Origin: Candidatus Marinacidobacterales bacterium
GTDB taxonomy: Bacteria > Acidobacteriota > Vicinamibacteria > Marinacidobacterales > SMYC01
Assembly: GCA_965237955.1 (NCBI GenBank)
Contig: OZ250169.1
Coordinates: 128,001-192,000 of the forward strand
Direction of reading: 5' to 3'
DNA length: 64,000 bases
The translations under genes were made by a program, and so were the position numbers. Below the pieces are notes generated by a model. It had not been told where the DNA came from. It ran no database searches and saw only the letters and a list, made by a program, of their open reading frames with translations. Shown here in pieces: positions 18,672 through 44,375 of the stretch; the stretch's first letter is position 1; each line of letters starts with the position of its first letter.

Positions 18672-18700
18672 CCCCGGATGTCACGCTCCTACGCTATTAT
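18665..18700 (+). promoter_or_regulatory. Palindromic operator and putative -10 box upstream of cas3
   Basis: AGCGTGAC-N7-GTCACGCT perfect inverted repeat (18665..18687) followed by TATTAT (18695..18700). Confidence 0.55.
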
Positions 18701-18736
18701 CGTTATTGACCGCTCGGAGATGAAACTGGAGGATCG

Positions 18737-23670: not shown

Positions 23671-24617
23671 TGAGTATCGAGCTGACCCCTTTCAACGACG
23701 CCCGTAAGCTTCTGATGAGCGTTGAGCTCAAACCCGTTCAGGGCACGCGCTTCCAGCCCACGGGATTTCCTGATCTCGGAGCCGCATCCTACCAGGCCGG
23801 TGACGCGCCGTGCCTGCTCGTAGAAAGCGCCCAATCGATGGCCAACCGCCTGGAAGCGGTGTGTTGGGACGAGACGACGCAGGACCTGCGAGAGCCGCTG
23901 ACAGGTCTAAGCTACATCCGTGTCGAACGGGATGGTACGTATCTGACGAGCTCGATTACCGAAGCCCACCGCATCAATAGCCCCTATATTCTCGAGAGCA
24001 AGGATCGGAGCTTTTTTGACCGGCTGAAGCATGCGGTGGCGCCGCTGAAGGAAGGGCCGATCGATCGCCACGTTCTTGCTGAGACACTTTTCGAGTTCGA
24101 CTGCAACAGTCTGCTTCATGGTGTATTCCTCGCGAAGAAGGAGCTGGCAGGTGGCCGTCTCCGCGTTGCCCGTTCGTTGTCAGCCTTCATCGAAGCTAGC
24201 GAGGCACAAGTCGCCGCGTCCGGCGGAGTCAAGAACGACACTGTCAATCCGAGCGGGGATACAGCCCGCGGCTTCGGCAATGTCCCTTTTCATCGCGAGG
24301 AATACACGGCTCAGACGATCACGGCCTACTTCAATCTTGACCTCGGTCAGATCCGTGGGTACGGACTTGGGTCGGAGTCGGAGCGGTTACTGATTCTGCT
24401 GGCTTTGTACAAAATCCGCGCTCTACTCGACGGTGACCTACGCTTGCGCACCGCCTGTGACTTCACGCTTGCAGACGGCGACGGCGCTATTGCCGCTGAC
24501 GCACCCGATGGGTTCGAGCTTCCACCTCTGGCCGAGTTGGAAACGTCTCTTCCGGCTGCGATCGCCGCGTGCAAGGACAAGATTGCCGGTGTCACGACTG
24601 TCCAGTTCAAGCAATAG
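23667..24617 (+). CDS. csb1: Type I-G Cas7/Csb1
   Basis: RFQPTGFPDLG, ESAQSMANRLE, EAHR, SGGVKND, GFGNVPF, LRLRTAC. Confidence 0.93.
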   Translation: MMSIELTPFNDARKLLMSVELKPVQGTRFQPTGFPDLGAASYQAGDAPCLLVESAQSMANRLEAVCWDETTQDLREPLTGLSYIRVERDGTYLTSSITEAHRINSPYILESKDRSFFDRLKHAVAPLKEGPIDRHVLAETLFEFDCNSLLHGVFLAKKELAGGRLRVARSLSAFIEASEAQVAASGGVKNDTVNPSGDTARGFGNVPFHREEYTAQTITAYFNLDLGQIRGYGLGSESERLLILLALYKIRALLDGDLRLRTACDFTLADGDGAIAADAPDGFELPPLAELETSLPAAIAACKDKIAGVTTVQFKQ

Positions 24618-24628
24618 GGTAACGTCAC

Positions 24629-26269
24629 ATGACGATGATCGCGCTACGATTTCCAGGAGGACGCTATCACGCGACCCCGTGGGGTCGGCATGTCAACGAA
24701 GGCGCCATCGAGTGGCCACCAAGCCCCTGGCGAGTGCTTCGCGCCCTGGTGGCGACGGGCTTCTCGAAGCTTGCTTGGCAAGCGGTGCCCGATGATGCGT
24801 GCTCCCTGATTACGCACCTCGCTACCGAGCCTCCGAGTTTTCGACTTCCTGCAGGCGAGGTCTCCCACACGCGCCATTACATGCCCGTGATCGAAGGACG
24901 GAAGCAGACCACGACCAAGGTCATCGATACCTTTGTGCGGTTAGACGCAGGTGAGGAGCTTCTCATCCATTTTCCTAGCGAGTTGCCGTCCGACGAGCTG
25001 GAACTTCTCGAGAGCCTAGTCTCAAGCCTCGGATACTTCGGCCGAGCCGAGAGCTGGGTTGAAGGACGCTTGGCTGACGACGTGATTCCCGATGCAACGT
25101 GGTGCGTCGCTCGCCAGAATGGCTCATCATCGTTGCCTGACCTAGGTGGCGGCGACGTAGCTCTCCTCGCTCCGGTTTCGGCATCGGAATATGACTCCTG
25201 GCGAAGCGCGGCGAGCGAACAAGCTAAGAGAGCGGCGTTCGCAAGCGTTCGGGCTGCCGCTGCGGCAAAGCACAAGCAGGCCACCAAGACGCAGCTTGCC
25301 CAGGCAGAAGCGAAAATCATGGCACTGTACCCAGACGACCTACTCGGCTGCCTGCTCCAGGAGACCGCCGACTTGCAGCAGCAAGGTTGGAGTCAGCCAC
25401 CCGGTTCTCAGCAGATCCTGTATCGCCGGCCGGCAGGAACACTCGAGCGCCGGCCGCGACATCAAGCCTTTCATCCACGCTCCAGGCCTTCCGTTCAGGC
25501 CGCGTTGCTGGCCCTCACTTCGGATACGAAACGCGGTGATGTCCTTCCATTGTTCACGCGCTGCCTGCCGCAGGCTGAGCTGCTTCACCAGTCGCTGGTC
25601 AGCCTGCTCGGCGACGAGGCCTCGATGTGCTCCGTCCTTTCCGGCCGAGATCCAACCGAGGGCGGCCGTCTAACTGGTCACCAACACGCTCACTATCTGC
25701 CTTTGGATCTGGACGAGGACGGTCGCCTCGACCACGTCATCGTTCACGCGCCCATGGGGCTTGACGAGCGTGCTCAAGCAGCGATCGGACGCTTGCGGCG
25801 AACCTGGACTAAGGGTGGCGACAAGGATATCTTCGTTGCATGCGTTGGAATGGCCGACCTGTCGCAAGTCGCCGCGCAGTTGCGCCGGCGTTCAGGCAGA
25901 TCCCTTTCGGAGTTGTCGACATCCCACCGCTGGAGCAGCATCACGCCCTTCGTTCCACCGCGACATCTCAAAAAGCGGAACCACAGTCTGGAAGATCAGA
26001 TTCGCGCAGAGCTCGAAAGCAGAAGTCTGCCACCGCCGCAGCTCATTGACACGTTCAGCAGGAAAGAGCTGATTGAGAAGAAGCTGTTGCGCTTTGTCCG
26101 TACGCGCCGCGGCGAGAAACCCCAGCCCCCCGCGCACCGAGCGTTCGGTATTCGGCTAGTCTTCGACGAATCCATTTCTGGGCCGATCACTCTCGGCTAC
26201 GCCAGCCACTACGGACTCGGCCTGTTCGCGGCCGAACACGGTGGCGCGGGTTCCAACCGCGTACGCTAA
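24629..26269 (+). CDS. csb2: Type I-G Cas5/Cas6 fusion Csb2
   Basis: GRYHATPWG...EWPPSPWR, YFGRAESW, HQHAHYLP, GPITLGYASHYGLGLF. Confidence 0.93.
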   Translation: MTMIALRFPGGRYHATPWGRHVNEGAIEWPPSPWRVLRALVATGFSKLAWQAVPDDACSLITHLATEPPSFRLPAGEVSHTRHYMPVIEGRKQTTTKVIDTFVRLDAGEELLIHFPSELPSDELELLESLVSSLGYFGRAESWVEGRLADDVIPDATWCVARQNGSSSLPDLGGGDVALLAPVSASEYDSWRSAASEQAKRAAFASVRAAAAAKHKQATKTQLAQAEAKIMALYPDDLLGCLLQETADLQQQGWSQPPGSQQILYRRPAGTLERRPRHQAFHPRSRPSVQAALLALTSDTKRGDVLPLFTRCLPQAELLHQSLVSLLGDEASMCSVLSGRDPTEGGRLTGHQHAHYLPLDLDEDGRLDHVIVHAPMGLDERAQAAIGRLRRTWTKGGDKDIFVACVGMADLSQVAAQLRRRSGRSLSELSTSHRWSSITPFVPPRHLKKRNHSLEDQIRAELESRSLPPPQLIDTFSRKELIEKKLLRFVRTRRGEKPQPPAHRAFGIRLVFDESISGPITLGYASHYGLGLFAAEHGGAGSNRVR

Positions 26270-26280
26270 ACGGGGCTATT

Positions 26281-28002
26281 GTGGATGACGGGTCACGCGC
26301 GGAAGATTTCCTCCCCGTGCGCATGCTCAACGAGTTCGCCTACTGTCCCCGGCTTTTTCACCTGATGCACGTGGAAGGCCGTTGGGCCGACAACGTCTAT
26401 ACCGTCGAGGGGAAACAAGCTCACCGGCGAGTGGACAAACTCGACCACGTCTTACCCGATCCAGAAGCCAGCCTCTCTAATCAGCCCGACGTTTCTTCTG
26501 TTACCGCTAGATTTGATGACGACGAACCACCCACCGTGACTCGTTCGGTACCGCTCTCCTCGGATCGTCTTCGTATCACAGCCAAGCTCGACTTGGTTTC
26601 CAGCGACGGGCGTGAGGCTGTGCCCGTCGAAACGAAGCGCGGGCGCGTGCCCAACAACGATCACCGTTCGTGGGAGCCGGAGCGCGTACAGCTGATGGCA
26701 CAGGGGCTGCTCTTGCGCGAACACGGCTACCAGTGCGACCACGGATTGCTCTATTTCTCAGGCTCCAGAACACGCGTCGACGTGCCGTTCACCACCGAGC
26801 TTGAAGCGCTGACGCTGTCGTTAATCGAGGAGGCGCGCCAGTCCGCATATCGAGAGAAACTGCCTCCCCCTCTCGAAGATAGTCCTAAGTGCATTGGATG
26901 TTCCCTCAATGGAATCTGCCTGCCGGATGAGACGCTCGCACTTCAGCAAGTCCCTGCGGATCCCATAGCACCGGCCGTACGCCGACTGTATCCGGCCCGC
27001 GATGACGCCGTTCCACTGTATGTACAGGAGCAGGGAGCGAAGGTCGGAAAAACCGCAGAGAACTTGATCATCCGCAAGGGCAAGGACAACCTGGCCTCCG
27101 CCCGCCTCAAAGACGTGAGCCAGCTCGTATTGTGCGGGAACGTAGGCGTCAGCGCCCAAACCATTCATCTTCTCTCTGAAGCGGGCGTTCCTATCGTTCA
27201 CCTATCTTCGGGGCACTGGTTCCATGCAATCACATATGGTATCGGGCTTCGCAATGCCTATGATCGCGCTGCGCAATTTGCGGCTGCGGCCCAACCGAAC
27301 AGGTGTCTGAGCTTCGCAAAAGCGGTCGTTGCCGCGAAAGGGTCGAATCAACGCACGATGCTGAGACGTAACGGAACCGTCACCGATCGTACGCTTCGTG
27401 AAATGCAGGAATTGATCAAGAGCACGGCTCGGGTTCAGAGTGTGGAACAATTGCTTGGTCTCGAAGGCAGCCTCGCAGCACACTATTTTCGGCACTTCGA
27501 TGGCATGCTCCGACCACGGGACTTCGATGCGGTGTGGGACTTCGCGAGCCGAAATCGGCGCCCGCCGAAGGACCCCGTCAATGCGCTGCTTTCCTTTGGC
27601 TACGCCCTACTGACCAAGGAGTGCACGGTGGCCCTCTTGGCTGAAGGTTTGGACCCGTGGTGGGGCTTCTATCACCGACCTCGACATGGACGCCCAGCCC
27701 TCGCATTGGATTTGATGGAGCCACTGCGCCCTTTGATCGCGGACTCCGCCGTCGTGAGTGCCGTGAACACCGGAATGTTAAAGGCCAAGGATTTCACGAC
27801 GAGCAGGGCCGGATGCATGCTCAATCCAATCGCGCGCAAGGCCATGATCCAAGCCTATGAATCCCGGCTCGACCAGGTGGTTACTCATCCGGTGTTCGGC
27901 TATCGCTGCTCGTGGCGGAGCATGATTCGAGTTCACGCCCGATTGCTGGCACGTTGGTTGCGGGGAGACGTGCCCAGCTATCAAAGCATCGTCACCCGCT
28001 GA
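26281..28002 (+). CDS. cas1: Cas4-Cas1 fusion
   Basis: YCPR, KLD..PVETKRG, C..CSL..IC Cas4 Fe-S motif; LGLEG, RRPPKDPVNALLS, LALDLME Cas1 motifs. Confidence 0.96.
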   Translation: MDDGSRAEDFLPVRMLNEFAYCPRLFHLMHVEGRWADNVYTVEGKQAHRRVDKLDHVLPDPEASLSNQPDVSSVTARFDDDEPPTVTRSVPLSSDRLRITAKLDLVSSDGREAVPVETKRGRVPNNDHRSWEPERVQLMAQGLLLREHGYQCDHGLLYFSGSRTRVDVPFTTELEALTLSLIEEARQSAYREKLPPPLEDSPKCIGCSLNGICLPDETLALQQVPADPIAPAVRRLYPARDDAVPLYVQEQGAKVGKTAENLIIRKGKDNLASARLKDVSQLVLCGNVGVSAQTIHLLSEAGVPIVHLSSGHWFHAITYGIGLRNAYDRAAQFAAAAQPNRCLSFAKAVVAAKGSNQRTMLRRNGTVTDRTLREMQELIKSTARVQSVEQLLGLEGSLAAHYFRHFDGMLRPRDFDAVWDFASRNRRPPKDPVNALLSFGYALLTKECTVALLAEGLDPWWGFYHRPRHGRPALALDLMEPLRPLIADSAVVSAVNTGMLKAKDFTTSRAGCMLNPIARKAMIQAYESRLDQVVTHPVFGYRCSWRSMIRVHARLLARWLRGDVPSYQSIVTR

Positions 28003-28295
28003 TGACGAGCCGAAAACGGTACTTGGTCGCTTACGACGTCGCAGATGATAAGCGGCGCAACCAGGTCTTCAGAACGTTGTCTGGCTATGGGGACCGCGCA
28101 CAATACAGCGTCTTTTTCTGCGAGGTGAATCCCCGCGAGCTGGCGGAGCTCCGCGGCAAGCTTCACCGGACCATCCATGATAGTGAGGATCAGGTCATGA
28201 TACTGAAGCTGGGTGCGGCCACACAACCGCTAGAAACAGATCTCCAATGTCTTGGAAAACCCTATCGACCGGCAACAACGGTATTCGTTGTATGA
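28002..28295 (+). CDS. cas2: Cas2
   Basis: YLVAYDVADDKR...YGDRAQYSVF; TGATG overlap with cas1. Confidence 0.95.
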   Translation: MTSRKRYLVAYDVADDKRRNQVFRTLSGYGDRAQYSVFFCEVNPRELAELRGKLHRTIHDSEDQVMILKLGAATQPLETDLQCLGKPYRPATTVFVV

Positions 28296-28465
28296 TTCGA
28301 GCGGCGGAGTGGTGCCCGAGTGCCCGCCGCCGCTCGTGCTCTTTGACAACTAGAGGTTTAAGCCATGACGACGCGGCCCACGAGCCAGTGCGAGCGCGTG
28401 CATACAACGACCTCTCGATAACAAGCGAAAAAGCCTTTATTTCGCAAAGAGTTGTCGAGCGGTCT
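28296..28465 (+). promoter_or_regulatory. CRISPR leader
   Basis: 170-bp non-coding interval between cas2 and the first repeat. Confidence 0.7.
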
Positions 28466-31400
28466 GTTTCCGCGTTCATGAGAACGCGGCCCCATTGAAG
28501 CGCTTCCCTCATCTCCAGTTCGAGGACCGCCTGCTGGGTTTCCGCGTTCATGAGAACGCGGCCCCATTGAAGCGATATCCAGGACAAGATCACGGCGAAG
28601 CTCGCCAAGGTTTCCGCGTTCATGAGAACGCGGCCCCATTGAAGCAGGCTCTCCCCAAGATCGCCGTCGGTGATAACGACAACAGGTTTCCGCGTTCATG
28701 AGAACGCGGCCCCATTGAAGCAACGCGCCGGCCTTGATGCGCGTTGGGATCCAGGTGTCGTTTCCGCGTTCATGAGAACGCGGCCCCATTGAAGCCAGAA
28801 GTAGTGCTCGCGCACCCAGCCATCAATCCCTGTTTCCGCGTTCATGAGAACGCGGCCCCATTGAAGCGCATGTGGCGGCGTATCCACACTCGGCGCACCA
28901 GTGTTTCCGCGTTCATGAGAACGCGGCCCCATTGAAGCTCGAGCCATTCTCCGGCGCTCCTCGAGAGGAGGTCAGTTTCCGCGTTCATGAGAACGCGGCC
29001 CCATTGAAGCATCGACGAAATCAGCACGGCGCCACCGGCAGTCCAGGCGTTTCCGCGTTCATGAGAACGCGGCCCCATTGAAGCTGGTCAAACCGGCCGG
29101 ATCTGATTCGGCAGCATATCGTTTCCGCGTTCATGAGAACGCGGCCCCATTGAAGCGCCGACGCCGACTACCTGGACGGGCGGCGGTGGTACGGTTTCCG
29201 CGTTCATGAGAACGCGGCCCCATTGAAGCTCGTCCGTCAAATGCCAAGCCTTGGCCTCTCCGTCGTTTCCGCGTTCATGAGAACGCGGCCCCATTGAAGC
29301 ACGGCACGTCCGTTGACATAGTTGACGGAGAGGATGGTTTCCGCGTTCATGAGAACGCGGCCCCATTGAAGCCAGTTCGCCGACATGCTGGTGCGCGAGG
29401 GCGCTGCGCCGTTTCCGCGTTCATGAGAACGCGGCCCCATTGAAGCATGTCCAGCGTGCCACGCAGAGTAAACGATGCTCCAGGTTTCCGCGTTCATGAG
29501 AACGCGGCCCCATTGAAGCAGTTCCCCTTCGAACTCGAGCAGGTCGTCGCTTGAGGTTTCCGCGTTCATGAGAACGCGGCCCCATTGAAGCCTCCTGGCC
29601 GACTGGAAAACGGGGTTCTGGCCCCCGGTTTCCGCGTTCATGAGAACGCGGCCCCATTGAAGCTTGTTATTTCCTTCCCTCGGCGAGTCGTGGCTCCCGT
29701 TTCCGCGTTCATGAGAACGCGGCCCCATTGAAGCCCAGTCATTCTGCGAATCGACGTGCCAGCAGAGTTGCGTTTCCGCGTTCATGAGAACGCGGCCCCA
29801 TTGAAGCCGAAACGTCATCGCTTGCCGGACATACCCAGCATCACGTTTCCGCGTTCATGAGAACGCGGCCCCATTGAAGCACGGTCGCGTCCCAATCGCG
29901 TAGGCGCTCTCGCTTTGTTTCCGCGTTCATGAGAACGCGGCCCCATTGAAGCCGCATGCCGTCGATCTCTGCCGACATCTGTTCCGTCGTTTCCGCGTTC
30001 ATGAGAACGCGGCCCCATTGAAGCAGGGCGAGCTAGTGCGCGTCACCCACGACTATATCTCGAGTTTCCGCGTTCATGAGAACGCGGCCCCATTGAAGCC
30101 GGACGAGGTGCTTCGCCCGGGCGTTGACAAGCGGGTTTCCGCGTTCATGAGAACGCGGCCCCATTGAAGCCCGGTGGCGTTCGCGCCCCGAAGGACGTTA
30201 ACCCCGTTTCCGCGTTCATGAGAACGCGGCCCCATTGAAGCAAGCGGCATCCCTTTTGGGACGTCTATGCCGATGTTTGGTTTCCGCGTTCATGAGAACG
30301 CGGCCCCATTGAAGCACCTTCATCTAGGTCGAGTTGCCGCCACTCGCAATAGCGTTTCCGCGTTCATGAGAACGCGGCCCCATTGAAGCGTTTCAGCAAA
30401 GCCGGTCGGCGTAGAATTAAAGAGTTTCCGCGTTCATGAGAACGCGGCCCCATTGAAGCCTTCTGCCCCCCGCGGAAGTCATCATGGACAAATTGGTTTC
30501 CGCGTTCATGAGAACGCGGCCCCATTGAAGCTCTCATGTCGGAGATGCGCTCGTGGACGATTGCCCCCGTTTCCGCGTTCATGAGAACGCGGCCCCATTG
30601 AAGCCCGTTTACCGCCATCCGCCGCATCTCCTTCTTGCTCAGTTTCCGCGTTCATGAGAACGCGGCCCCATTGAAGCGGCCCGAGCAATCTGTGCTGGGG
30701 TGAGCTAGGTGGGCGGGTTTCCGCGTTCATGAGAACGCGGCCCCATTGAAGCAGCCAGTATTCGGCCAAGGGCGTTCGGCAACTGCGCCGTTTCCGCGTT
30801 CATGAGAACGCGGCCCCATTGAAGCAATCCGAAGGATGAGCAAGCCAAACAGACGCGCGAAGATGTTTCCGCGTTCATGAGAACGCGGCCCCATTGAAGC
30901 TCGTCATCGGACAGCTCTCTGGTGTCCGGGGCCGCTAGTTTCCGCGTTCATGAGAACGCGGCCCCATTGAAGCGTGTCGCCAAACCACTCCTTCTGTAGC
31001 TCCAACGACAGGTTTCCGCGTTCATGAGAACGCGGCCCCATTGAAGCTTTCCCGCCCGGTCTCGTCGGGGCGGCCGCACCACCCACGTTTCCGCGTTCAT
31101 GAGAACGCGGCCCCATTGAAGCGAGCTGGGGGTCAATCAGCCGCGCAAGCGGCCCCGTGTCGGCCAGGTTTCCGCGTTCATGAGAACGCGGCCCCATTGA
31201 AGCGAGCGGAGGGAAGCTGGATACCATCCTCTACGACGCCGTTTCCGCGTTCATGAGAACGCGGCCCCATTGAAGCCCTTGCCCCCCGTTATACGCGGCA
31301 AGGGCCATTGCCCGTTTCCGCGTTCATGAGAACGCGGCCCCATTGAAGCATGAACGCGGCCACCTTCGCCCTCGCGATTGGGATTCGCGTTTCCGCGTTC

Positions 31401-33541
31401 ATGAGAACGCGGCCCCATTGAAGCGTGCTCGCGGCCGTCTTGGCAATCACGTCGGCGGCGTTTCCGCGTTCATGAGAACGCGGCCCCATTGAAGCGAGAA
31501 AATGGCCGGCCGCATCGTTTGAACGTTCGAGTTTCCGCGTTCATGAGAACGCGGCCCCATTGAAGCCTGACGGATGAGAGTGCCTTGGGTGACCCTCTCA
31601 AGTAGTTTCCGCGTTCATGAGAACGCGGCCCCATTGAAGCATATCGACACCGGACCGACCACGACCACCGAGGTTATGTTTCCGCGTTCATGAGAACGCG
31701 GCCCCATTGAAGCGGGAGCTGCGGGGGCTTCGGGTACTTCGGATTCCGGGTTTCCGCGTTCATGAGAACGCGGCCCCATTGAAGCGAGCACTTGGCCTGG
31801 TGTGAGTTCAATCTCGGCGGTCGTTTCCGCGTTCATGAGAACGCGGCCCCATTGAAGCTTTTCACCAACGTCGCCCTCTCTGAGCATCCTTCGGAGTTTC
31901 CGCGTTCATGAGAACGCGGCCCCATTGAAGCATTACGACGCCTCAAGCCCGATGCTCCGAGAGTTTCGTGTTTCCGCGTTCATGAGAACGCGGCCCCATT
32001 GAAGCGGTTTCACACGACACTCGCGCGCTTGGAGTCCGGTGAGTTTCCGCGTTCATGAGAACGCGGCCCCATTGAAGCCTTCCCTGTGACGCTATCCCAG
32101 GAGTCCGCCACAGAGGTTTCCGCGTTCATGAGAACGCGGCCCCATTGAAGCTAGTCCCACATCGCTGTACGCGGCCATCTGAGAGCCGTTTCCGCGTTCA
32201 TGAGAACGCGGCCCCATTGAAGCACGCCCGAGTGGGACGCCTGCGCGCCTACGGGAACGCCATGTTTCCGCGTTCATGAGAACGCGGCCCCATTGAAGCG
32301 TGCCGGCGCATTGCCATGTCGATCGCGTCGTTCACGTTTCCGCGTTCATGAGAACGCGGCCCCATTGAAGCGGGTTTGGAAGCAAACCTAGTCACCGAAC
32401 CCACTCAGTTTCCGCGTTCATGAGAACGCGGCCCCATTGAAGCACGCCCGCCTCTCGGAGGATCCGGCCGATGGCAGCCGTTTCCGCGTTCATGAGAACG
32501 CGGCCCCATTGAAGCGCCCTCCAATCGCCCCAGGTCGCGCGCCCGACTTCCGTTTCCGCGTTCATGAGAACGCGGCCCCATTGAAGCCGTGTCCGTCCAT
32601 GTCTCAACCACCTCGAAGAACTGTTTCCGCGTTCATGAGAACGCGGCCCCATTGAAGCCTGGTGTTCACCTTCACAGCCATGCCATGCTGATTTGTTTCC
32701 GCGTTCATGAGAACGCGGCCCCATTGAAGCACTTTTGCCTTAAGGCGTGGCGTCATCTGACTTCTCCGTTTCCGCGTTCATGAGAACGCGGCCCCATTGA
32801 AGCCCAGGCTGGCCTCGTTGGTCCCCGAAACCTGGATGCGTTTCCGCGTTCATGAGAACGCGGCCCCATTGAAGCAAGCTTTTTGAATTGCATCCTATCG
32901 GATTCGCAACTCGTTTCCGCGTTCATGAGAACGCGGCCCCATTGAAGCGACCCAGCTGCCAATGCAGCACACGACGCGCTGTCGGGTTTCCGCGTTCATG
33001 AGAACGCGGCCCCATTGAAGCAAGTCCCTCCTGGGAGCGCGCGGTTCCCAGTAGCTCAAGTTTCCGCGTTCATGAGAACGCGGCCCCATTGAAGCTAGAA
33101 CAGGTTCCCGCCCACCACGGCGCCGCCGAAAGTCACGTTTCCGCGTTCATGAGAACGCGGCCCCATTGAAGCTTGTCGCGCCACTCCCGGTACGTCTCGA
33201 CGTAGGCGAGTTTCCGCGTTCATGAGAACGCGGCCCCATTGAAGCTTGGGGTCCACCTTCCACTTGCCGCCGGGCGTCGGGGTGGTTTCCGCGTTCATGA
33301 GAACGCGGCCCCATTGAAGCGATCTCTTCCCTGCGCATCGATTCGAGATGGCTTCGGGTTTCCGCGTTCATGAGAACGCGGCCCCATTGAAGCTGGGTGT
33401 AGGCGAAACGCTCCTGGATACGGCAAAGTGGGTTTCCGCGTTCATGAGAACGCGGCCCCATTGAAGCAACGTCACGGCTGCGTTGTTGGCCCACGCGACC
33501 TTGGCGTTTCCGCGTTCATGAGAACGCGGCCCCATTGAAGC
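28466..33541 (+). CRISPR. CRISPR array: 70 copies of the 36-bp repeat GTTTCCGCGTTCATGAGAACGCGGCCCCATTGAAGC with 69 complete spacers (about 34-45 bp)
   Basis: Counted by eye; mean period about 73 bp; hairpin CCGCGTTC-ATGA-GAACGCGG; ATTGAAGC 3' handle typical of I-G. Confidence 0.98.
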
Positions 33542-33930
33542 AAGATATTATTAGCCAACACCGAACCCACTGACCCCGTCCTGTGCCAAAACTCGGCCCT
33601 CTTGAAATAGCCGATAAATCAACAGCTTAGCGTCTGTGTTTTGCGACTGGGCCAAGGGCTGGAGGCTCTACAATCGTCTGGACCGAGGGTGTTATCTTCA
33701 GATCCATGATGACGTACCACGTGCGATTCTTACTGCTCGTTCTGGCTGGCTGGGTCAACCGCCAGCAGCAGGATGTGATCGACTACCTGCGAGAGGAAAA
33801 CCGTGTGCTCCGTGCCGGGCTTCGGGGCAAGCGTCTCAGGCTCTCTGACGACAACCGACGCAGGCTCACCGTCAAGGCCCAGGCTTTGGGCCGGGAGGCG
33901 CTGGCCCAGATTGCGTCGGTTGCCACACCC

Positions 33931-34094: not shown

Positions 34095-34194
34095 CCAAAA
34101 TAGCGCTTACGACCTTCGCCGCACGCTAAATGGAGCGCAAGCGCCTCTTTTGCAACGGGATGCGTACATATTACCAACAGTAAACAGCGCAAGC

Positions 34195-34376
34195 ACCGCC
34201 GAATGCCCGCCATGGGTCCGGCACTGGCGTTCGTACGCAAGAACGCGGCGCATGAAAACGCGAGAGAGCGAGCGTGGGGGAGCAGCCCCGAAGGCCTGCT
34301 CCCAGACCCGCCGTAAGCTGGCGAAGTCCAAACCGTCCAAACCGACGTTCCGGCCAACCCCTGTATCCTGCGGCAT
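34195..34376 (-). pseudogene. DUF2924-like fragment
   Basis: LDFASLRRVWEQAFGAAPPRSLSRVFMRRVLAYERQ...GG; this family normally precedes large serine recombinases. Confidence 0.6.
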
Positions 34377-34698
34377 CACCGAACGTTCGCTCTTGTGCTC
34401 GATAAAGTCCAGTCTAATGAGGGACTTCCGGGTGCGAAGCTCACTGCCCGTAGCTCGCCCCACAGCCGATTTGAGCCAGCCGTACGCACCCCCGGTGGGC
34501 CTGTCGCTCGCCACCCGCAGCCCAGGGGTCGGAAGCCAGCCCTGCGGCGCGAAATACCCTCGATTCTGCACGGATTCCAAGGGCGTCTAAGCTGCTGATT
34601 TGTGGTCTATTTCAAAAGGGCCGAGTTTTGGCACAGGACGGGGTCAGGGTGAAGAGGTCACGGTGGCGCATCCCGACATGTTCAACAACGTGTACTCT

Positions 34699-35661: not shown

Positions 35662-35913
35662 TTATTGCTTCGCTGTCTTCTTCGCCTTCTCTGCCGCTTT
35701 GGCTTCTCGCACCTTTGCCTTCTCCGCCGCTTTGGCCTTGGCTTCCCGCACCTTTAGCCACGCACGGACCTCCCGCAGACGGAATTGAGACGCCACGCCG
35801 CGCCCTCTAGTGTGGACCGGCATCCCAGACCGCTCCCATTTTGTTACCATCTGTTTATCGACGCCCAAATGCTCGGCTAGCTCCGACCTCGTCAACACTC
35901 GCGCTTTGGCCAT
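35662..35913 (-). CDS. gpNu1/excisionase-like winged-HTH protein with Lys/Ala-rich tail
   Basis: LTRSELAEHLGVDKQMVTKWERSGMPV...FRLREVRAW resembles the lambda Nu1 N-terminus; GGAGGAGG RBS. Confidence 0.65.
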   Translation of the reverse strand: MAKARVLTRSELAEHLGVDKQMVTKWERSGMPVHTRGRGVASQFRLREVRAWLKVREAKAKAAEKAKVREAKAAEKAKKTAKQ

Positions 35914-36441: not shown

Positions 36442-36635
36442 TGTATCTGGTGAAGGCGCAGCTCGGTCAGCGGTTACGCTTGAGCGACGAGCAGCGTCGA
36501 CGGCTCGCGGTCAAGGGGAACAACGCCGAGCATAGCGGCGAAGTTTCGCCGTCTTCGGCCAGGAATTCAAGCGGAGCGTAAGTCCTTGATTTCGTGGGCG
36601 GAGCAGTTTTGACGATGCACAGCTAGCAGAACTCT

Positions 36636-37256
36636 TCAAGCAGGGTTTGGCGACGGGAACAGTCCCTTGATCGTCTCTTCAAATCCTTGGCGACGCAACT
36701 CCCTGGCGATGAAGGGGAAGTGCGCCTGGAGGTAGTCGAACGTCGTGTGGCCCCAAGAGTAGCTCTGCACTACAGAGAAGCGCCACTCGACCAGAGAGTC
36801 ATCCTTGTTGAGGCGCAGTACCCGAATCGTGCGCTGCACGAGTTCCTGTTCGTTGTCACTGAGGCCATCTCCCGACACCACATAGAAGTTAGTGAAGTTG
36901 AGGGCGAACCAAGTATCCTCGATTGCGAAGGGGTCGACGATGTCATCCCGATCCCCCTTGTAGCTGTTGAGCTTCTCGAAGGCGAGGCGGTAGTTGCCCC
37001 ACTCGTAAGCGAGGGCGGGCATCACCGACTTCGGCCGAAAGTGATCAATTGAGCCATGGGCTGGTATCCAACAGGCACAGTACGCACAGAGATGACGATA
37101 GGCCGTGCGGGCCTGTGGCAGCATTCTCTTCCAGTAATCCTTACGCCTGAAGTCCTGACTGGTGGGAAACGCGCAACAACGTAGGAAGGCAGTACCGGGC
37201 TTTCGGACTTGGTGGTCGAAGTCAGGTGGCTCCGGAGCCACGCGCACACGAATCAT
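36636..37256 (-). CDS. HNH endonuclease (PtuB/retron-effector-like)
   Basis: CAYC...SIDHFRPKS..PALAYEWGNY......N..KG; ATGA overlap with the ATPase stop. Confidence 0.85.
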   Translation of the reverse strand: MIRVRVAPEPPDFDHQVRKPGTAFLRCCAFPTSQDFRRKDYWKRMLPQARTAYRHLCAYCACWIPAHGSIDHFRPKSVMPALAYEWGNYRLAFEKLNSYKGDRDDIVDPFAIEDTWFALNFTNFYVVSGDGLSDNEQELVQRTIRVLRLNKDDSLVEWRFSVVQSYSWGHTTFDYLQAHFPFIARELRRQGFEETIKGLFPSPNPA

Positions 37257-39130
37257 ACCTCGGCTCCGTGCTGTCTGGCGAAGAAGACCCACCGTTGCCA
37301 GAAAATGTCGTCCGCTGGGAGCGTGCCCCTCAGCTGCTCGGTGATGCTGTTAAGCTGTTCCCGGTTCGGACGAGGATCGTCCAGCACTCTCTTCGCCTCC
37401 TCTACGGTGCTTTCACCTTCTCGTGATCGGGCCTGCTTGAGTTCGAACACGTCCGATGTCAACCACTCGTCCACGCGGCCCAACCGCAGGAAGTCGACTG
37501 GGTTGAACGCGACCTCCCTGGAGTCAGAAAGCTGAAGGTGATACACCCGGTCGCTCTCGTCTGAGAACAGGGCCTCCAGAGAAAGCATGACAAGCGGGGA
37601 ATGCGTGGTGACCATGATTTGGGGCTCGATCTCCTTGCTCAGAATCGACGAGACATCCAGGATGGCAGGGAGAATGACCCGCTGCCACTGCGGGTGCAAG
37701 TGCGCCTCCATCTCGTCTATCAGCACCACGATGCGTTGCTCCGGCTGCTTCCGCGACAGATTCGCGGCAATCCGGTGCTCTGTCCACGCCCACACGAGCA
37801 GGTAGCCGAGGGTGGCTATCCGGCGCACGCCAGCCGACTCGTGGATGAAGGGGACATCGCCGTATGAGTGCTTGAGCACTGGGATCTCCCTGGCGTCACC
37901 GGGAACTCTTACTGGGTCGCCAGGCGTGAGATGCTCGGCTTCTGGGGGAGAGAGCCGTTCGAGTACCTTCGTGAAGAGCTCGAACTTGGCGTGGTCTGGG
38001 TGGTGCTGCCAGTTCACCCAGTCGCGCAACAGGCCCTCGATCTTGCCAGGAAGACCATCGAGCACATCGTCCCTCTGGAACACCAGAATCCGGGTATCCT
38101 CTCGTGCGTGCTTTGACTGGCGCATAGGGTCCCACACGGCAAACGACCCATCTACGCGGGCATAGACGATTAGCCCCGGAATCGTGGGCCGGCCTTTTGG
38201 AAATGGCCAGTCTTGGTTCTCCCAGTTGTAACGGATCGTCTTCTCCTCGGCCGTCCCGCCCGCCCGCACTATGTTGAACTTGATTGCGGGCTCCGACTTC
38301 GCTGCGTCAGGGCGTGGAGAGGCCACAGAACCTGACCAATGGCCGGTGAGGCTCCACCACGCGCAGTCCAGCAGGAAACTCTTGCCGAGTCCGTTGTCGC
38401 CGGTGATGATGCTGAGCCGCTCCCCAGGCTCATAGAGTAACCTGCGGACAGGCCCGATTCCGGCTATCTCGAGGAGCCGGAGGGTGCCACCGGTCTCAGG
38501 TGTCGCATCGGGCGGCGGCGGTGCACCCACAGCACGGAGCAGGTTCCTACCCTGGCACAGGTAGTGAGCACCAATTGCACGTGATGCTTCTGGTGGTAGG
38601 CCGGTGTCAAAGAGCTCCCGCTGCTCTTCATCTGATATGTGATAGTCGCGGAAGAAGGCCGAGAGGACGTCTGCAGCGGCCGTTTGTGGCGGCCAGTCTG
38701 TTTCCCGGTATAGCCACACCGCGAGCCAGAAAGCAGAGACCGAATAAGTCTGATCACGCGCGAGCTTCGCCTTAAGTGTGGGCACGTAGTCGGTCTTCCA
38801 TCCCCACTGATCGGTGTTTCGCTTATGCAGGAAAGCTTCGGCAAGTTGCCCTCGGGTTCGCGTGCTCTGCGAGCCTGACATGGGGTACTTTTGGGACAAC
38901 CATGACCGCCGAGAGGACGTCTTGAAGGGCTGGTAGTAGTAGGTGGATTGGGGATCCGGTTTGTAGTGGAGCTGAAGAAACTCCTTCTCATTGTGATTCA
39001 CGGGGAAGGAAACCATGTGACCGACAGGGAGTCTGCCCTGCTTACAAACCAGGTAGGTAATTCCGAAGAATGGATGGACGCGCCGCAGGCGGGTGGCTGC
39101 CTGCTGGATGGCTGCCTCCGTTAGGTACAT
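37253..39130 (-). CDS. ABC-type (AAA_21, PtuA-like) ATPase with extra ~210-aa N-terminal domain
   Basis: Walker A GDNGLGKS, signature ESAG, Walker B LIDEMEAHLHPQWQ, TTHSP. Confidence 0.9.
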   Translation of the reverse strand: MYLTEAAIQQAATRLRRVHPFFGITYLVCKQGRLPVGHMVSFPVNHNEKEFLQLHYKPDPQSTYYYQPFKTSSRRSWLSQKYPMSGSQSTRTRGQLAEAFLHKRNTDQWGWKTDYVPTLKAKLARDQTYSVSAFWLAVWLYRETDWPPQTAAADVLSAFFRDYHISDEEQRELFDTGLPPEASRAIGAHYLCQGRNLLRAVGAPPPPDATPETGGTLRLLEIAGIGPVRRLLYEPGERLSIITGDNGLGKSFLLDCAWWSLTGHWSGSVASPRPDAAKSEPAIKFNIVRAGGTAEEKTIRYNWENQDWPFPKGRPTIPGLIVYARVDGSFAVWDPMRQSKHAREDTRILVFQRDDVLDGLPGKIEGLLRDWVNWQHHPDHAKFELFTKVLERLSPPEAEHLTPGDPVRVPGDAREIPVLKHSYGDVPFIHESAGVRRIATLGYLLVWAWTEHRIAANLSRKQPEQRIVVLIDEMEAHLHPQWQRVILPAILDVSSILSKEIEPQIMVTTHSPLVMLSLEALFSDESDRVYHLQLSDSREVAFNPVDFLRLGRVDEWLTSDVFELKQARSREGESTVEEAKRVLDDPRPNREQLNSITEQLRGTLPADDIFWQRWVFFARQHGAEV

Positions 39131-40020
39131 ATCGAGAGCTTCGTCAGGTGCTCCACGATGTGGCGGCAGAAATTAGGTTGTAGGTCAATGCCGGTCACGT
39201 CGCAACCATGGGCCAGTGCGACTCGCAACGTAGTTCCAGCGCCCACGAATGGGTCGAGGACGGTGCCGCCTGATTCGCATCCCATCAAGAGGCACTTCTC
39301 GACGAGTTCATCGGGGTATGGAGCTGTATCCAAGCCGTTGGGCAGGGGTTTCGGGCGTGCCGGTATGGTCCACACGTCCTCTTCAATCACGATATCCTCC
39401 AACGCCTCACGGCTGAAGTGATAATACCTGTCCTTTGCGAACATGAAAACATACTCATAGCTCCGCCGCGGCCGATCCCTTACGGCTTCTGGCAATGTCT
39501 GGTGGCGGTGCCAGATAATCGTGCTCCTGAGAACCCACTGACGCGCCATCATTTCCATAGCCACGCGCCAGGGGACTCCGATGAGTGACTTGCGCAACAC
39601 ACCGATGCCCAATCCTCCGCTCTTATCAACGGGCCTAACGCCGAAGCGCCGCTTCCTGCTCTTCTTGTCCTGTCCGTGTGCTCGACCCTTGCCTGAGTAG
39701 TAGGTGTCCCCAAGGTTCAGAAAGAGCAGCCCATCTGATCGGAGAACCCGATGGACTTCGTCCATCACGGCCGCGAGACTTTGGACATATTCGCCCACGG
39801 AGTCCTCCAAACCCATTTGGCCTGCTACTCCGTAGTCTCGTAGACTGTAGTAGGGAGGCGAGGTCACTACGCAGTTGAACCTCTCTTCGGGAAGGCCAGC
39901 AAGCACACTCTGGGCGTCACCGCAGTGGACGTGCCAGCACCTACCCTCGATTGTGCTCCCCTCCCACGAATTGATTGGGGTTGACGGAGAGACAGCGGTG
40001 CTACCGGACCCGTCTGCCAA
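39121..40020 (-). CDS. Site-specific amino (N4-C/N6-A) DNA methyltransferase, beta class
   Basis: VTSPPY near the N-terminus, FLNLGD, VLDPFVGAGTT near the C-terminus; overlaps the ATPase start by 10 bp. Confidence 0.92.
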   Translation of the reverse strand: MADGSGSTAVSPSTPINSWEGSTIEGRCWHVHCGDAQSVLAGLPEERFNCVVTSPPYYSLRDYGVAGQMGLEDSVGEYVQSLAAVMDEVHRVLRSDGLLFLNLGDTYYSGKGRAHGQDKKSRKRRFGVRPVDKSGGLGIGVLRKSLIGVPWRVAMEMMARQWVLRSTIIWHRHQTLPEAVRDRPRRSYEYVFMFAKDRYYHFSREALEDIVIEEDVWTIPARPKPLPNGLDTAPYPDELVEKCLLMGCESGGTVLDPFVGAGTTLRVALAHGCDVTGIDLQPNFCRHIVEHLTKLSICT

Positions 40021-40083
40021 ACCTTATGCCTCCTCGCCCGTGGCCGGGCAGTGAATAGCGTGGACGGCAGGACACCGCCGCGG

Positions 40084-40599
40084 TCACCTGCTCCACTTTC
40101 GAGCCGGGGTCCTTCCCGTCCACAACCGTTGTGAATCCTCAGAGCGAGACGTTTCTTGAGCGGTTAACCTTCTTGACTTGCAGGCCTTATGAACTTCATC
40201 AGGCGTTTGGTAGTCCAACGATGAGTGAAGCCGGTCCCGGTCGTAGTAACGAACGTACGCATCAATGCAGACCTTCAGATAATCGTCGGTCGAGAATTCG
40301 AACTCCTTCTTGAGTTGGGCGACAGAGGTGCCCTCGAAAACGATCACGTCCCGAGTGCCCATCACTTCTTCATGGAAGACGCCAGCCTCGTCATCGAAAG
40401 TAACCGCTGCACGGTATCTTTTGAATTCTATCATCGTTTTCAGGGCGTCTTTGACAGAAAAGACCTTTCCCTCCACTGCACTACAATCCGGGCAGACCCT
40501 TTCATCTTGTACCGTTGAGACCATCACCCTCGCGATGCCCACTCGATCCATGCGCTTGAGAACAGCGCGGAGCCGTTTTCGGTCTGCGCGTTCAGCCAT
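40084..40599 (-). pseudogene. Mosaic ORF: Cys-motif fragment, HicB fragment and IS3 integrase tail
   Basis: DERVCPDC..EGKVF; YRAAVTFDDEAGVFH...DVIVFEGTSVAQLKKEF...DDYL (HicB); YY..DRLHSSLDYQTP (IS3). Confidence 0.6.
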
Positions 40600-40671: not shown

Positions 40672-42101
40672 CCGTCCTGTGCCAAAACTCGGCCCTTTTG
40701 AAATAGACCATAAATCAGCAGCTTAGTGTCTGTGTTTGCGACCGGGCCAAGGGCCGTAGGCTTTACAATCTCTTGGGCGGGCGGGTCGTCATCATGCAGA
40801 TGACCACCTAGTCGAGAGCGAATATCGAAGCGTGTTCCTGAAGCTGTTTCCGCGCTACGTCGGTCGAGCCCACCGAGGGCCTACCGTCGCCAGCGACAAT
40901 CTACGCGGCACGGTAGTAGTAGTTGAGAATGCCCCCGAGTCGCTCTCGCGACACGATGGGGCCAGCGTCATTCGCGCTTGCCGGCAGAGGTGTGATGAGT
41001 TCGTTGCCGAGACCTTGGTGGTTCCGTTCTGTGTGATAGTGCACTACGTATTCGGTTACCGCTGTCCGCAGGTGTCGCTCACTGAGAGGCACGAAGCGGT
41101 CGAGACATTCTCGACGTATGGAGAGAACGAATCTTTCCGCATATGCGTTCAGATTCGGACTATTAGCGGGAAGGCGGAGGGGCTTCACGCCTGAATCTCT
41201 CAACAGCCCACGTACCGCCTCGGTGAATAGCGGGTCCCGGTCGTGGATGAGGTACCGCTTGCCAAGGAGGAAACCATCCCACATGTCCGTGAGGTTTCTT
41301 GCCACCTGCTTCATCCACTCCCCGTTTGGGTCCGAGCTTATCCCACCGATGCATACGCAGCGAGTGGCGATATCGATGACAAACAGGACATGGTAGCGGA
41401 CGAGCCCGAACGGGTTCACCACCTCGACGGTGAACAGGTCGGTCGCAGCGATAGCGCCCCAATGAGCCTTGATGAAGGTGCTCCACGACATGCTCTTGCC
41501 CCGCTCCGGGGCAGGAGCGATACCGTGCTCGGCGAGGACCCTCTTGATGGTGTTGCGTCCGAGTTCATGTCCGAGGTTCTTGAGTACGCCCCGCAGGCGC
41601 GTATATCCCCACGTCGGGTTCTCCCGCGCCATGCGTACAATGAGCTCACGGATGTCCTTCGCCGTGGGAGGTCGGCCTGGGCTCCGGTTCTTGCTGCCAT
41701 CGTACTTGGCTGCGATGAGGCAGCGGTACCAGCGTAGAAGCGTAGCGGGTGTGGCAACGGACGCAATCTGGGCCAGCGCCTCGCGGCCCAAGGCCTGGGC
41801 CTTGACGGCGAGCCTACGCCGGTCGTCGTCAGAGAGCCTGAGACGCTTGCCCCGAAGCCCGGCTCGGAGCACACGGTTTTCCTCTTGCAGGTAGTCGATC
41901 ACATCCTGCTGCTGGCGGTTGACCCAGCCAGCCAGAACGAGCAGTAGGAATTGCACGTGGTACGTCATGATGGAACTGAAGATAACACCCTCGGGCCAGA
42001 CGATTGTAGAGCCCACGGCCCTTGGCCCGGTCGCAAAACACAGACGCTAAGCTGCTGATTTATCGGCTATTTCAAGAGGGCCGAGTTTTGGCACAGGACG
42101 G
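40672..42101 (-). mobile_element. Complete rve/integrase-core IS (IS481/IS3-like; transposase 40901..41968) with long imperfect TIRs
   Basis: [39 protein letters not shown]; TIRs CCGTCCTGTGCCAAAACTCGGCCC... of about 90 bp. Confidence 0.9.
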
Positions 42102-42102
42102 G

Positions 42103-42545
42103 CTTGCCGATCCCAAAACGGATTACGGCTCTACTTGAGACGTGGAAGTGGCGTCATCTTGACCGCCATCCCACGCACTCGACCGCTCGATTGCCGAAAT
42201 ATGCTGCCAACGCTTCGAGGAGACCGAATGAGAGTTCGGCGGTCGTTTGCGTCGCAGTTCCCACAACCGGTCCGGCGAGATCGATGTCTCCAGGGGCACC
42301 GAGGGCCAAAAGCGGCGCGGGCATTGGCGCGGACCACTCGCCGGTCACCGCCGTGCCATTCTGGACCAGTTCCGCTTGCCCATCGCCGGAGAATAGAATT
42401 CCGTCGAACGTCCCGGACCACCTGCCGGTGAGTGTCACGTACTCGTGCACCTGGTTGTCGTCGGGCGCCGTCGGCGCCGTCGGTCCGTCGTCGCCGCACG
42501 AACCGGCCAGCAACGCAAGACAGACGATGACCGCTGAACGTGTCA
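42103..42545 (-). CDS. Putative lipoprotein, degenerate or truncated at the 3' end
   Basis: VIVCLALLAGSC lipobox then GDDGPTAPT; LTGRWSG; abuts an IS end. Confidence 0.5.
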
Positions 42546-44375
42546 CGGGCTTATGGCAACTCTGAATGTTTCCCAAGCCTGTATAAGCTGGGTGCCACCC
42601 AAGGTTAGCCCGCCGCCCCCGCCAAGTACTGCAAGAACGTAGTGGCCGCTATGGCTTTGGAAGGCAATCGCGTCGCCAGTCCGAATGTCCGACACGTTTT
42701 CCTCGTCAACGCGATGTATCCGGAACGATTCCCATGTCCCTGGAGCCGTTGCACCAGCGTCCAGAACATCGCCGCCGCCGGCCACGGCGCGGACATAGAA
42801 CGAGGCATCCGTACGAAGATGGACGACGTCGCCGGACATCACGCACCCGCCGTTCTGATCCTCAAGAGTGAACCGTTCCCACGGCCCGGCTGTGTTCCCG
42901 TCCGCTCGTAACTGCCCTCCCCCGCCACCCTCCGCGACCAGGTATTGCCCGTTGTGGGCCTGTAAAGTGACCTCTGCGGGGCCGTCGATGCCGAGACACG
43001 GCGTCCGCCGAAAATTCGCAATAGCGGAAGCATTTTCGTTATGGACACGGCGACCGTCTGCCGGTCCTTCGATATCATCAGACGGAGTTGCTCCTGACAC
43101 CCCCATCGGGTCACCGCGGTAGGACTGATCAGGGTTGGAAAAGCGAAACAGCTGTGGGCAAGGCGACCGGCCCTTTCCGTCCGGGTGGGGAATCGACTCG
43201 AAGCCCGCGTCCGCGCACTGCAACTCGTACGCCATGACAGTGTGCCAGCGTCTCGACTCCGTCGCCCCGGCCTCGAACGCCTTCTGGTTCACATAGCCAA
43301 ATGCATACGGAGGTTCCAGGCGCCTCAATATCTCTCCCTCTCTATCTTGAGCATAACGGTCGTGATACATTCCCATGTTGTGCCCAATTTCATGAGCAAT
43401 ATTTTCAGACCGACTGGGACAATTCGAATACATGGCGGTAGGCGTAGAAGACAAGGAGAAAGCGCCATAGAGGTCAGCTAGCCCACTACAACCAGCAGGC
43501 GTGCCGATGACCAAATGAACCAGGTCCGCGTAGTATTGATCGCGCCACGCGTGAACCTCGTCCATCTGTCCATCCGATGGATCTGTCAATGCTCTGAGAG
43601 CTGGCCTCATTGTCTCCAAAGAGTTGGTCATTGTGGGTTCTTCTATGTAAGTGACCTCTGCCGCGTGTGCCAAATGCAGCCGATGCTGGATGCCGCTCTC
43701 TGCATAGGACCGGTTGATTTCGGTGATGAAAAGATCTATCAGCGTTCTGATCCCAGCTGTCCCTCCCTCGGCATCCCGCGCAGCAGGAGTATAGACCACC
43801 ATGACATCAATGCGTGAAGGATCATCATCTGATTCCGATCGGAGAGGTTCGCCAGCGTCTGTCACTCCGAATGACTGCGGATGACGACTTCCGGTCTGGA
43901 AGCCTCCATCAAAGATGGGTGGTTCCCTGAAGATAGCATCAGCAGGGTCCACTTGTCGGATCCTGACGACACCGAGGTTAGTCGAACGGATGTCGTAGAT
44001 CTCTGTTGGAGTCCGTACCGTCCCTGCGACAGTATCTCCATTGACTACTAGTGTCAATGTGCCGAATGGCACGCCTACCAGGTCGCCGAACAGCGCATAG
44101 CCCGATGAGGTAGTCGCGGTTCGTGAAACAATTGCCTTGAACACGGTGTCGTTAAACAGGTTCAGTACCAGTACTGTTGATGCGACTCCCCCGCTTGCAT
44201 GAACAAACGCCCTCGACAACTGCTGATCGTCAACTCGGACTAGGCGCGTACGGTCTAGTCCCAGTCCCGTAGTCCGTACGGGCTCAATCTCGACGAACAG
44301 CCACTTCTCTTGAGCAACGGCGACAACACACCACAATGCGTTCATCATTGCCAGTCCAACGACGACCGTTCGCAT
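42543..44375 (-). CDS. Secreted reprolysin-like (M12) zinc metallopeptidase with C-terminal fascin-like repeats
   Basis: Signal peptide; IDVMVVYT; HEIGHNMGMYHD; Met-turn TVMAY; repeated LQAHNGQYLVAEGGGG...GPWERF. Confidence 0.88.
   Translation of the reverse strand: MRTVVVGLAMMNALWCVVAVAQEKWLFVEIEPVRTTGLGLDRTRLVRVDDQQLSRAFVHASGGVASTVLVLNLFNDTVFKAIVSRTATTSSGYALFGDLVGVPFGTLTLVVNGDTVAGTVRTPTEIYDIRSTNLGVVRIRQVDPADAIFREPPIFDGGFQTGSRHPQSFGVTDAGEPLRSESDDDPSRIDVMVVYTPAARDAEGGTAGIRTLIDLFITEINRSYAESGIQHRLHLAHAAEVTYIEEPTMTNSLETMRPALRALTDPSDGQMDEVHAWRDQYYADLVHLVIGTPAGCSGLADLYGAFSLSSTPTAMYSNCPSRSENIAHEIGHNMGMYHDRYAQDREGEILRRLEPPYAFGYVNQKAFEAGATESRRWHTVMAYELQCADAGFESIPHPDGKGRSPCPQLFRFSNPDQSYRGDPMGVSGATPSDDIEGPADGRRVHNENASAIANFRRTPCLGIDGPAEVTLQAHNGQYLVAEGGGGGQLRADGNTAGPWERFTLEDQNGGCVMSGDVVHLRTDASFYVRAVAGGGDVLDAGATAPGTWESFRIHRVDEENVSDIRTGDAIAFQSHSGHYVLAVLGGGGGLTLGGTQLIQAWETFRVAISP

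Follow-up and report, generated by a model that had tools for sequence, protein, structure and literature searches.

A Septu PtuAB operon with a linked beta-class DNA methylase and a predicted DNA-reading domain on PtuA: a candidate ATP-dependent restriction-modification system in a Marinacidobacterales genome

We describe a three-gene operon on contig OZ250169.1 of a Candidatus Marinacidobacterales bacterium (assembly GCA_965237955.1), within a stretch of 64,000 nt (positions 128,001-192,000, forward strand) that we call the window. The operon encodes a DNA methylase, an ATP-binding cassette (ABC) ATPase and an HNH nuclease on three minus-strand open reading frames (ORFs), each without an internal stop:

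40029..40035, minus strand: ribosome-binding site GAGGAGG, read from the sequence, 8 nt before the methylase start
39121-40020, minus strand: methylase, 299 amino acids (aa), TTG start
37253-39130, minus strand: ATPase (long-form PtuA), 625 aa
36636-37256, minus strand: HNH nuclease (PtuB), 206 aa, ATG start

The methylase and ATPase genes overlap by 10 bp (39121-39130) and the ATPase and HNH genes by an ATGA (37253-37256). The ATG of the HNH gene is supported by homologues; the GTG at 37292 chosen by the ORF finder is upstream of it. Catalytic motifs are intact in all three proteins. The operon is present in a single copy in the genome, its GC content (0.57-0.60) is close to that of the genome (0.60), and it lies between copies of a multi-copy insertion sequence (IS), with a CRISPR array some 3 kb away. 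An earlier description of this DNA, made from its letters and ORFs (the sequence-only reading), had listed three intact genes with these overlaps, a beta-class SPPY methyltransferase, a 625-aa ABC ATPase and an HNH nuclease, with no reverse transcriptase, HsdS or Res gene nearby, and all of these statements held.

Judged by sequence, the ATPase-HNH pair is Septu PtuA/PtuB, a known pair. The ATPase matches the PADLOC profile PtuA1 (PDLC00270) at 3e-226 over residues 1-624, and the short-form profile PDLC00307 over residues 217-623 only; the HNH protein matches PtuB1 (PDLC00348) at 1e-62 over its full length. Because the PDLC00270 and PDLC00348 matches run end to end, the PADLOC profiles already cover the pair as Septu. 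An AlphaFold2 (AF2) model of the ATPase reached a predicted local distance difference test (pLDDT) score of 89, and its best Foldseek matches were retron I-A and Septu PtuA structures. The parts of the protein that concern us here are as follows:

37253..39130, minus strand: long-form PtuA, an N-terminal domain of ~200 aa followed by an SMC-like ABC ATPase (residues ~212-625)
38378..38401, minus strand: Walker A motif GDNGLGKS (residues 244-251), from the sequence and the homologue alignment

The Walker A motif, the ESAG signature (431-434), the Walker B residues D472/E473 and the switch residue H510 are invariant or nearly so in 64 homologues. In the nuclease, H72, N88 and N97 are invariant in 26/26 aligned relatives, and only one of the usual set of zinc cysteines is kept in most relatives. 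The long PtuA belongs to a widespread family, as the 120 listed best homologues are all ~610-670 aa long and at least 50% identical; a scan of genome contigs with the single ATPase sequence as query gave one irrelevant match. At three loci (L079, L082 and L088), short-form PtuAB lies directly beside PglZ-domain genes, at L082 also beside BrxL, so that these pairs sit within or adjoin BREX-like operons, a context that is likewise methylation-based.

In the methylase, SPPY (residues 54-57) stands before motif I, DPFVGAGTT (residues 256-264), and this order makes it a beta-class enzyme. It matches Pfam N6_N4_Mtase (PF01555) at 1.8e-34 and PADLOC MTase_II (PDLC03387) at 1.8e-74, and the latter profile also fits the annotated Pac25I methylase best. 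That methylase, which adjoins an XcyI-family endonuclease, is ~39% identical to the one in the window. The window protein is likely a beta-class amino DNA methyltransferase, a class given by its motifs, and would produce N4-methylcytosine if it follows its family. The Pac25I/XcyI-family target is CCCGGG. This target cannot be assumed here even though the methylases belong to the same broad family, because the operon has no XcyI-type endonuclease and the variable loop differs; in the alignment the loop of the present subfamily is basic and specific to it (GDTYYSGKG...KRRFG). We looked for a single target site by synonymous-shuffle tests on 44 long-form and 27 short-form operons and found general palindrome avoidance in which none stood out: CCCGGG occurred 11 times against 24.5 expected, and CTCGAG, GTGCAC, TACGTA and others were as low or lower. 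Genome-wide, there was no avoidance of CCCGGG (ratio 0.95). At three related loci (L060, L073 and L090) genes with a Cro/C1-type helix-turn-helix (HTH) directly precede the methylase, and controller genes likewise precede the methylase in type II restriction-modification (R-M) systems.

The methylase is tied to one form of PtuA. We examined 94 loci of the ATPase clade, namely the best 80 of 516 metagenomic loci (from a scan covering 19/64 parts), 6/45 viral loci (the other viral loci being distant) and 8 from genome searches, the window included. Nineteen with a cut 5' end or less than 900 nt upstream were set aside, leaving 75 evaluable loci, 52 long and 23 short. The methylase lies directly upstream at 50/52 long loci versus 0/23 short ones. 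If at least 900 nt of upstream DNA is strictly required, the figure is 43/45 long loci, since seven of the 50 had less than this and were counted because the gene was visible; after clustering at 70% it is 35/37 long versus 0/22 short. Four long loci that had been set aside were rechecked: two (L014 and L045) show a methylase tail, and two (L033 and L039) show none in ~200 nt. A Pfam scan of at least one upstream ORF at each of the 23 short loci found a DNA methylase at L084 only, a C5 methylase described below. Of 401 genomes from the same phylum, two hold a methylase of this subfamily (E ~1e-140; next best 1e-83), in both cases directly before a long PtuA, and two genomes with a methylase-less long PtuA have distant methylase matches only, on other contigs. 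Gene order and abutting or overlapping ends are constant across relatives to ~40% ATPase identity, and the other flanking genes vary freely. The sequence-only reading had raised the possibility that homologous pairs usually lack the methylase, and this proved true for the short form and false for the long one. A chance neighbour was rejected on the long-versus-short counts. A defence island in which an orphan methylase has hitch-hiked beside an ordinary Septu pair would suit the adjoining CRISPR-Cas genes, the many IS elements and the fact that beta methylases are often solitary genes; the constant order and gene ends, the variable flanks and the complete lack of the methylase beside short forms speak against it. 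We consider this explanation very improbable, and the linkage counts have already largely refuted it.

The domain and the methylase are also missing together. A FastTree phylogeny of 85 ATPase cores, rooted at the midpoint and with some poorly supported nodes, has one clade that is all short and another that is mostly long, and short forms are nested at about seven places within the long clade; six of these have evaluable upstream DNA, and all six lack the methylase. Across 31 complete operons, the distances of the methylase correlate with those of the N-terminal domain (0.69), the ATPase core (0.75) and the HNH protein (0.43), with a partial correlation of 0.37 between methylase and domain after controlling for the core; such values speak for co-inheritance and not for a mechanism. 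Upstream of one methylase-less long PtuA (L135:101-7011, G146) we observed five tandem paralogues with near-identical cysteine-rich N-termini.

What the long form has in addition is the N-terminal domain, for which our models give the following assignment:

38531..39130, minus strand: N-terminal domain (residues 1-200), a predicted winged-helix-like DNA-site reader; AF2 pLDDT 94 when modelled alone
38855..38887, minus strand: helix motif Y-x3-G-x-Q-x-x-R-T (residues 82-92), a putative recognition helix before a wing hairpin

For this domain, Foldseek gave no match at E<=0.001, sequence searches gave none in NCBIfam, PDB sequences or the ESM Atlas, Pfam gave none in the N-terminal part of the ATPase, and no match was found in plasmids (tblastn) or in 301 genomes of another phylum. 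Its profile detected only three long ATPases in the 401 own-phylum genomes, all already found. Among the 50 VIA rows listed by a wide structural search, the majority were proteins of the winged-helix or HTH kind (SarX, forkhead, Rot, TubR, DpnI); the best Z was 4.1, and the DpnI domain had a Z of 2.9. A winged-helix-like class, as predicted from the model, is consistent with these matches, although the score is weak. A hairpin comes after the conserved helix, and the two may correspond to a recognition helix and wing. The helix motif occurs in 52/52 methylase-linked domains versus 0/4 of the methylase-less ones, the motif itself having been derived from the linked set. In all four methylase-less long forms it is broken and the core residues are kept, the break in 3/4 including an alignment-dependent one-residue shift; leave-one-out tests also rank all four domains lower than every one of the 45 linked domains.

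The same domain is found on a second type of motor. A profile search of the full library with the domain gave 386 proteins, and the long proteins among the 150 listed matches were mostly PtuA fusions, with several McrB-like GTPases. McrB-family proteins hold a DNA reader at the N-terminal position (PMC7680126). In one of the domain-bearing proteins, the GTPase is 54% identical to the AAA subunit of the pNP40 LlaJI operon; the pNP40 LlaJI N-terminus and the N-terminal domain show no similarity to each other. Of the plasmid methylases, the four closest (47-49% identical) are each followed by an McrB-like gene and by one that, judged by its sequence, is McrC-like, and the N-termini of the McrB-like genes align to the domain (hhalign 95% for L152 and 79% for L153-L155, the latter as a three-sequence alignment). 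These four loci come from plasmids of Mycobacterium, Sphingobium, Mesorhizobium and Roseibium. They may represent a LlaJI-like system with a single amino-methylase and a remote homologue of the domain on an McrB-like GTPase. The specificity of LlaJI, a system that restricts unmethylated DNA, resides entirely in its NTPase subunit (PMC1459862). PMC11090510 announces a further paper, on McrBC systems associated with methylases, in which the domain may be covered. Viral and plasmid scans around three fusions of the domain to McrB (P0185, P0203 and P0304) gave GTPase relatives without the domain, or nothing. One McrB fusion carries a PDC-S02-like middle domain, which we take to be EVE-like. Two Pfam families, PF28529 and PF28530, are listed for P0185 and not for the ABC forms that share its N-terminal domain, and so they probably cover its middle domain.

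One alternative is a modification-dependent, type IV-like reading, in which foreign DNA would be bound by the winged-helix domain at a methylated base, with the methylase shielding host sites or marking incoming DNA. The winged-helix domains of DpnI and HhiV4I sense N6-methyladenine (6mA), as described in PMC11037411, and DpnI's is among the weak fold matches; the PDC-S02-like domain points the same way. A cognate methylase is lacking in type IV systems, the winged-helix fusion endonucleases included, but the link to one is nearly absolute here, and the B3 variant that we turn to now derives from a classical methylase-protected system. We regard this reading as improbable.

One short-clade locus shows a parallel arrangement:

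L084:3298-6811 (P0362-P0379): genes for a C5 methylase, a PtuA that carries an RE_NgoFVII_C B3-like domain at its N-terminus, and PtuB, in this order

L084 sits in the all-short PtuA clade. Its C5 methylase is 59-65% identical to ones that stand beside PLD-domain endonucleases in 3/3 records, two of them also with a Z1 gene. At 53% identity, the B3 domain of L084 matches the C-terminus of one such PLD-domain restriction enzyme. In R.NgoAVII, the C-terminal B3 part binds the site (PMC4267654). The B3-PtuA fusion forms 18 full-length clusters at 76-100% identity, from Microcoleus where named. From its sequence, the L084 type would be a second methylase-coupled Septu, whose reader belongs to a known type. 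The methylase type and B3 reader of the CglI/NgoAVII systems thus appear to have been grafted together onto PtuA, at the same slot; by analogy, this is our strongest argument that the slot reads DNA.

Based on these findings, we propose that the operon is an ATP-dependent R-M system with PtuAB as its motor and nuclease, a reading to which we give a probability of roughly 60%. The methylase would put N4-methylcytosine, the base expected from its family, on a short site in the host DNA. The winged-helix-like reader of PtuA would bind the same site when it is unmethylated, a role and a polarity of methyl sensing suggested by its fold class, its position and its loss together with the methylase. 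Binding would then license the ABC ATPase to activate or position PtuB, in an assembly like that of the Septu structures, and PtuB would cut the unmarked invading DNA. The methylase and the reader would thereby form a swappable specificity module, in place of control of PtuAB by ATP level or a retron. The sequence-only reading had offered two roles, a methylase that marks self DNA with an ATPase-HNH pair acting on unmethylated sites, or a pair that guards the methylase; on present sequence evidence the first is the better supported and the second ranks lower.

In the guard arrangement, the methylase protein would bind the N-terminal domain and hold PtuAB off, as an antitoxin does, and a phage inhibitor of the methylase would free the nuclease and cause abortive infection. 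There is a precedent in type I-A retrons, whose RT-msDNA partner keeps PtuAB inactive (PMC12673091). That domain and methylase occur together and are lost together would suit a docking domain equally well, and the partial correlation beyond the ATPase core also fits, though it reflects co-inheritance only. The B3 variant has a known site-specific DNA reader in the same slot, the domain is shared with McrB-like GTPases, whose N-termini are DNA readers (PMC7680126), and joint deletion of domain and methylase leaves short Septu pairs that are apparently intact. We consider a guard function unlikely. Another scheme, which we rate as unlikely and slightly more so, is methylation-gated abortive infection: the domain would sense unmethylated sites, PtuB would cut DNA or tRNA indiscriminately, and the cell would die. 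All the linkage evidence is compatible with it, and to our knowledge no ABC ATPase of the PtuA kind acts as a DNA translocase in R-M. Known PtuAB nucleases act on double-stranded DNA, single-stranded DNA or tRNA, with no site described in PMC12673091. The module's other carriers are McrBC/LlaJI-like and CglI/NgoAVII-like, and such systems cut the target DNA itself (PMC1459862, PMC4267654), a point against this scheme.

Several points weigh against the R-M reading. The target site could not be inferred from sequence. DNA binding by the domain is presumed from a weak fold match, and the helix-motif count is circular given the origin of the motif. The characterised Septu is inhibited by ATP and is not site-specific, as described in PMC12673091. 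As the best 80 of 516 metagenomic loci from 19/64 parts, the sample leans to close relatives. The direction of change in the tree depends on the midpoint root, and some nodes are weak. There are long forms without a methylase (L004, L006 and probably L033 and L039), which fall in two clades only, and short forms with no methylase at all are common; PtuAB therefore does not need the module. The N-terminal domain diverges much faster than the methylase (median identity 35% versus 63%), which is not obviously required by one fixed shared site. Finally, the gene context of the B3-PtuA fusion is known from one locus only.

Two independent plug-ins appear to have occurred, a beta methylase with the winged-helix-like domain and a C5 methylase with a B3 domain. 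This raises the broader idea that PtuAB is a general-purpose restriction engine, turned into a site-specific R-M system when a methylase and its cognate reader plug onto the PtuA N-terminus, and that this was gained at least twice independently; we hold it tentatively, at a little short of even odds. If true, a two-by-two scheme with the McrB-type motors would be complete, a new R-M class would be defined, and phages would already carry the methylase as a counter-measure. Among 80 listed matches, two phage contigs carry, among phage genes, a solitary methylase 50-52% identical to that of the window:

L164:4273-5319, viral contig: solitary phage methylase, loop type as in L152 and L044
L165:4225-5304, viral contig: solitary phage methylase, loop type as in L152 and L044

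These are candidate anti-restriction genes, and they would fit an escape by self-methylation without proving it.

Septu type I is close to the operon in its proteins: the two core proteins are covered from end to end by Septu profiles, their order is the same, and the fold matches PtuA structures (8EE4, 8EEA, 8SUX). Septu type I is an anti-phage DNase inhibited by ATP and forms a 6:2 complex. The described system has two genes and is regulated by the ATP level (PMC12673091, 10.1101/2024.10.26.620412), and the PADLOC paper names a reverse transcriptase as the only third Septu gene (PMC8565338). The operon, with its extra ~200-aa domain and fixed upstream methylase, falls outside the two-gene definition. 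Type I-A retrons, or Septu type II (Ec78/Eco7, Ec83), resemble it in that a third, upstream gene controls the PtuAB effector. A retron was rejected, as there is no reverse transcriptase within 200 kb (five RVT_1 matches genome-wide, the nearest more than 200 kb off) and the third gene is a DNA methylase; an Rfam scan of 26-48 kb of the window also gave no match, and Rfam does not cover all retron RNAs.

LlaJI-type systems share the plan of cognate methylase or methylases, an NTPase with an N-terminal specificity domain, a role that the PtuA domain would fill here, and a separate nuclease subunit (PMC1459862), and LlaJI-family GTPases carry the same N-terminal domain as this PtuA. The differences are an ABC ATPase instead of an AAA+ GTPase, an HNH instead of a PD-(D/E)XK nuclease and one amino-methylase instead of two C5 methylases. 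H. pylori LlaJI has a B3 domain (PMC7680126). CglI/NgoAVII systems likewise comprise methylase, ATPase and nuclease genes and need ATP to cut at their site (PMC4267654), but they use an SF2/Z1 helicase motor and a PLD nuclease, whose subunit carries the reader. Type I and III R-M were rejected because no SF2 helicase-like motor (HsdR, Res, Z1) is present in the operon or among its conserved neighbours; neither HsdS, HsdR nor Res was found among the window ORFs scanned with Pfam (most, not all, of those of at least 200 aa). MADS also combines methylation-based self/non-self discrimination (MAD2 methylase) with a PtuA-like ABC ATPase-nuclease module (MAD3 ATPase/MAD4), and differs in having eight genes, an N6-methyladenine (m6A) mark and a Toprim-like nuclease (PMC13662399). 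It was rejected for an operon of three genes with an HNH nuclease that gave weak MADS profile matches only.

The operon is thus made of Septu protein families outside the two-gene definition, and it would work like the NTP-dependent R-M systems of the LlaJI and CglI types while being a member of neither. Its new part is the N-terminal domain on PtuA tied to one beta-class methylase. The suggestion in the sequence-only reading of an undescribed system has to be narrowed in this sense: the pair itself is known Septu, and the fixed methylase partner of the long ATPase is what remains. We found no description of a methylase-coupled Septu in the open literature searched, a scope that left out REBASE, DefenseFinder rules, supplements and subscription journals. 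Current Septu profiles span two regulatory types, the two-gene form and the methylase-coupled form, whose third gene is outside the published definition. How Septu discriminates between phage and host is so far partly explained, by falling ATP or release from a retron, and a built-in methylase and reader make self/non-self discrimination by PtuAB directly testable. If the R-M reading is true, an ABC-ATPase motor would be added to the ATP-dependent restriction enzymes, and the unannotated ~200-aa domain would gain a function. We know of no type I-IV R-M enzyme with a motor of the ABC family.

The surroundings of the operon in the window contain the following:

4540-5730: gene for an E1-like protein (DUF6791 + ThiF) that may belong to a ubiquitin-like defence locus broken up by transposases
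17420-33600: WYL gene, Cas3 with a C-terminal HD domain, GSU0053-family Cas7, Cas4-Cas1 fusion, Cas2 and a CRISPR array of ~70 repeats of 36 nt
33575-33930 and 40700-42100: inverted integrase-core IS copies flanking the operon region, the left one partial
35662-35913, 34107-34580 and 40084-40599: phage- or mobile-element-like remnants around the operon
near 36460-36530: short remnant like the flanking IS, just beyond the HNH stop
42543-44375: M12-family metallopeptidase flanked by IS elements, with a repeat domain at its C-terminus

The CRISPR-Cas locus is presumably of type I-G (I-U)-like kind. The flanking IS has ~50-110 matches per bin in the genome. Of the remnants around the operon, one is an Nu1-like HTH and another a fragment of DUF2924; the third is a mosaic ORF whose matches, Mu F-like and integrase, are weak and which also holds a piece that we take to resemble HicB-type proteins.

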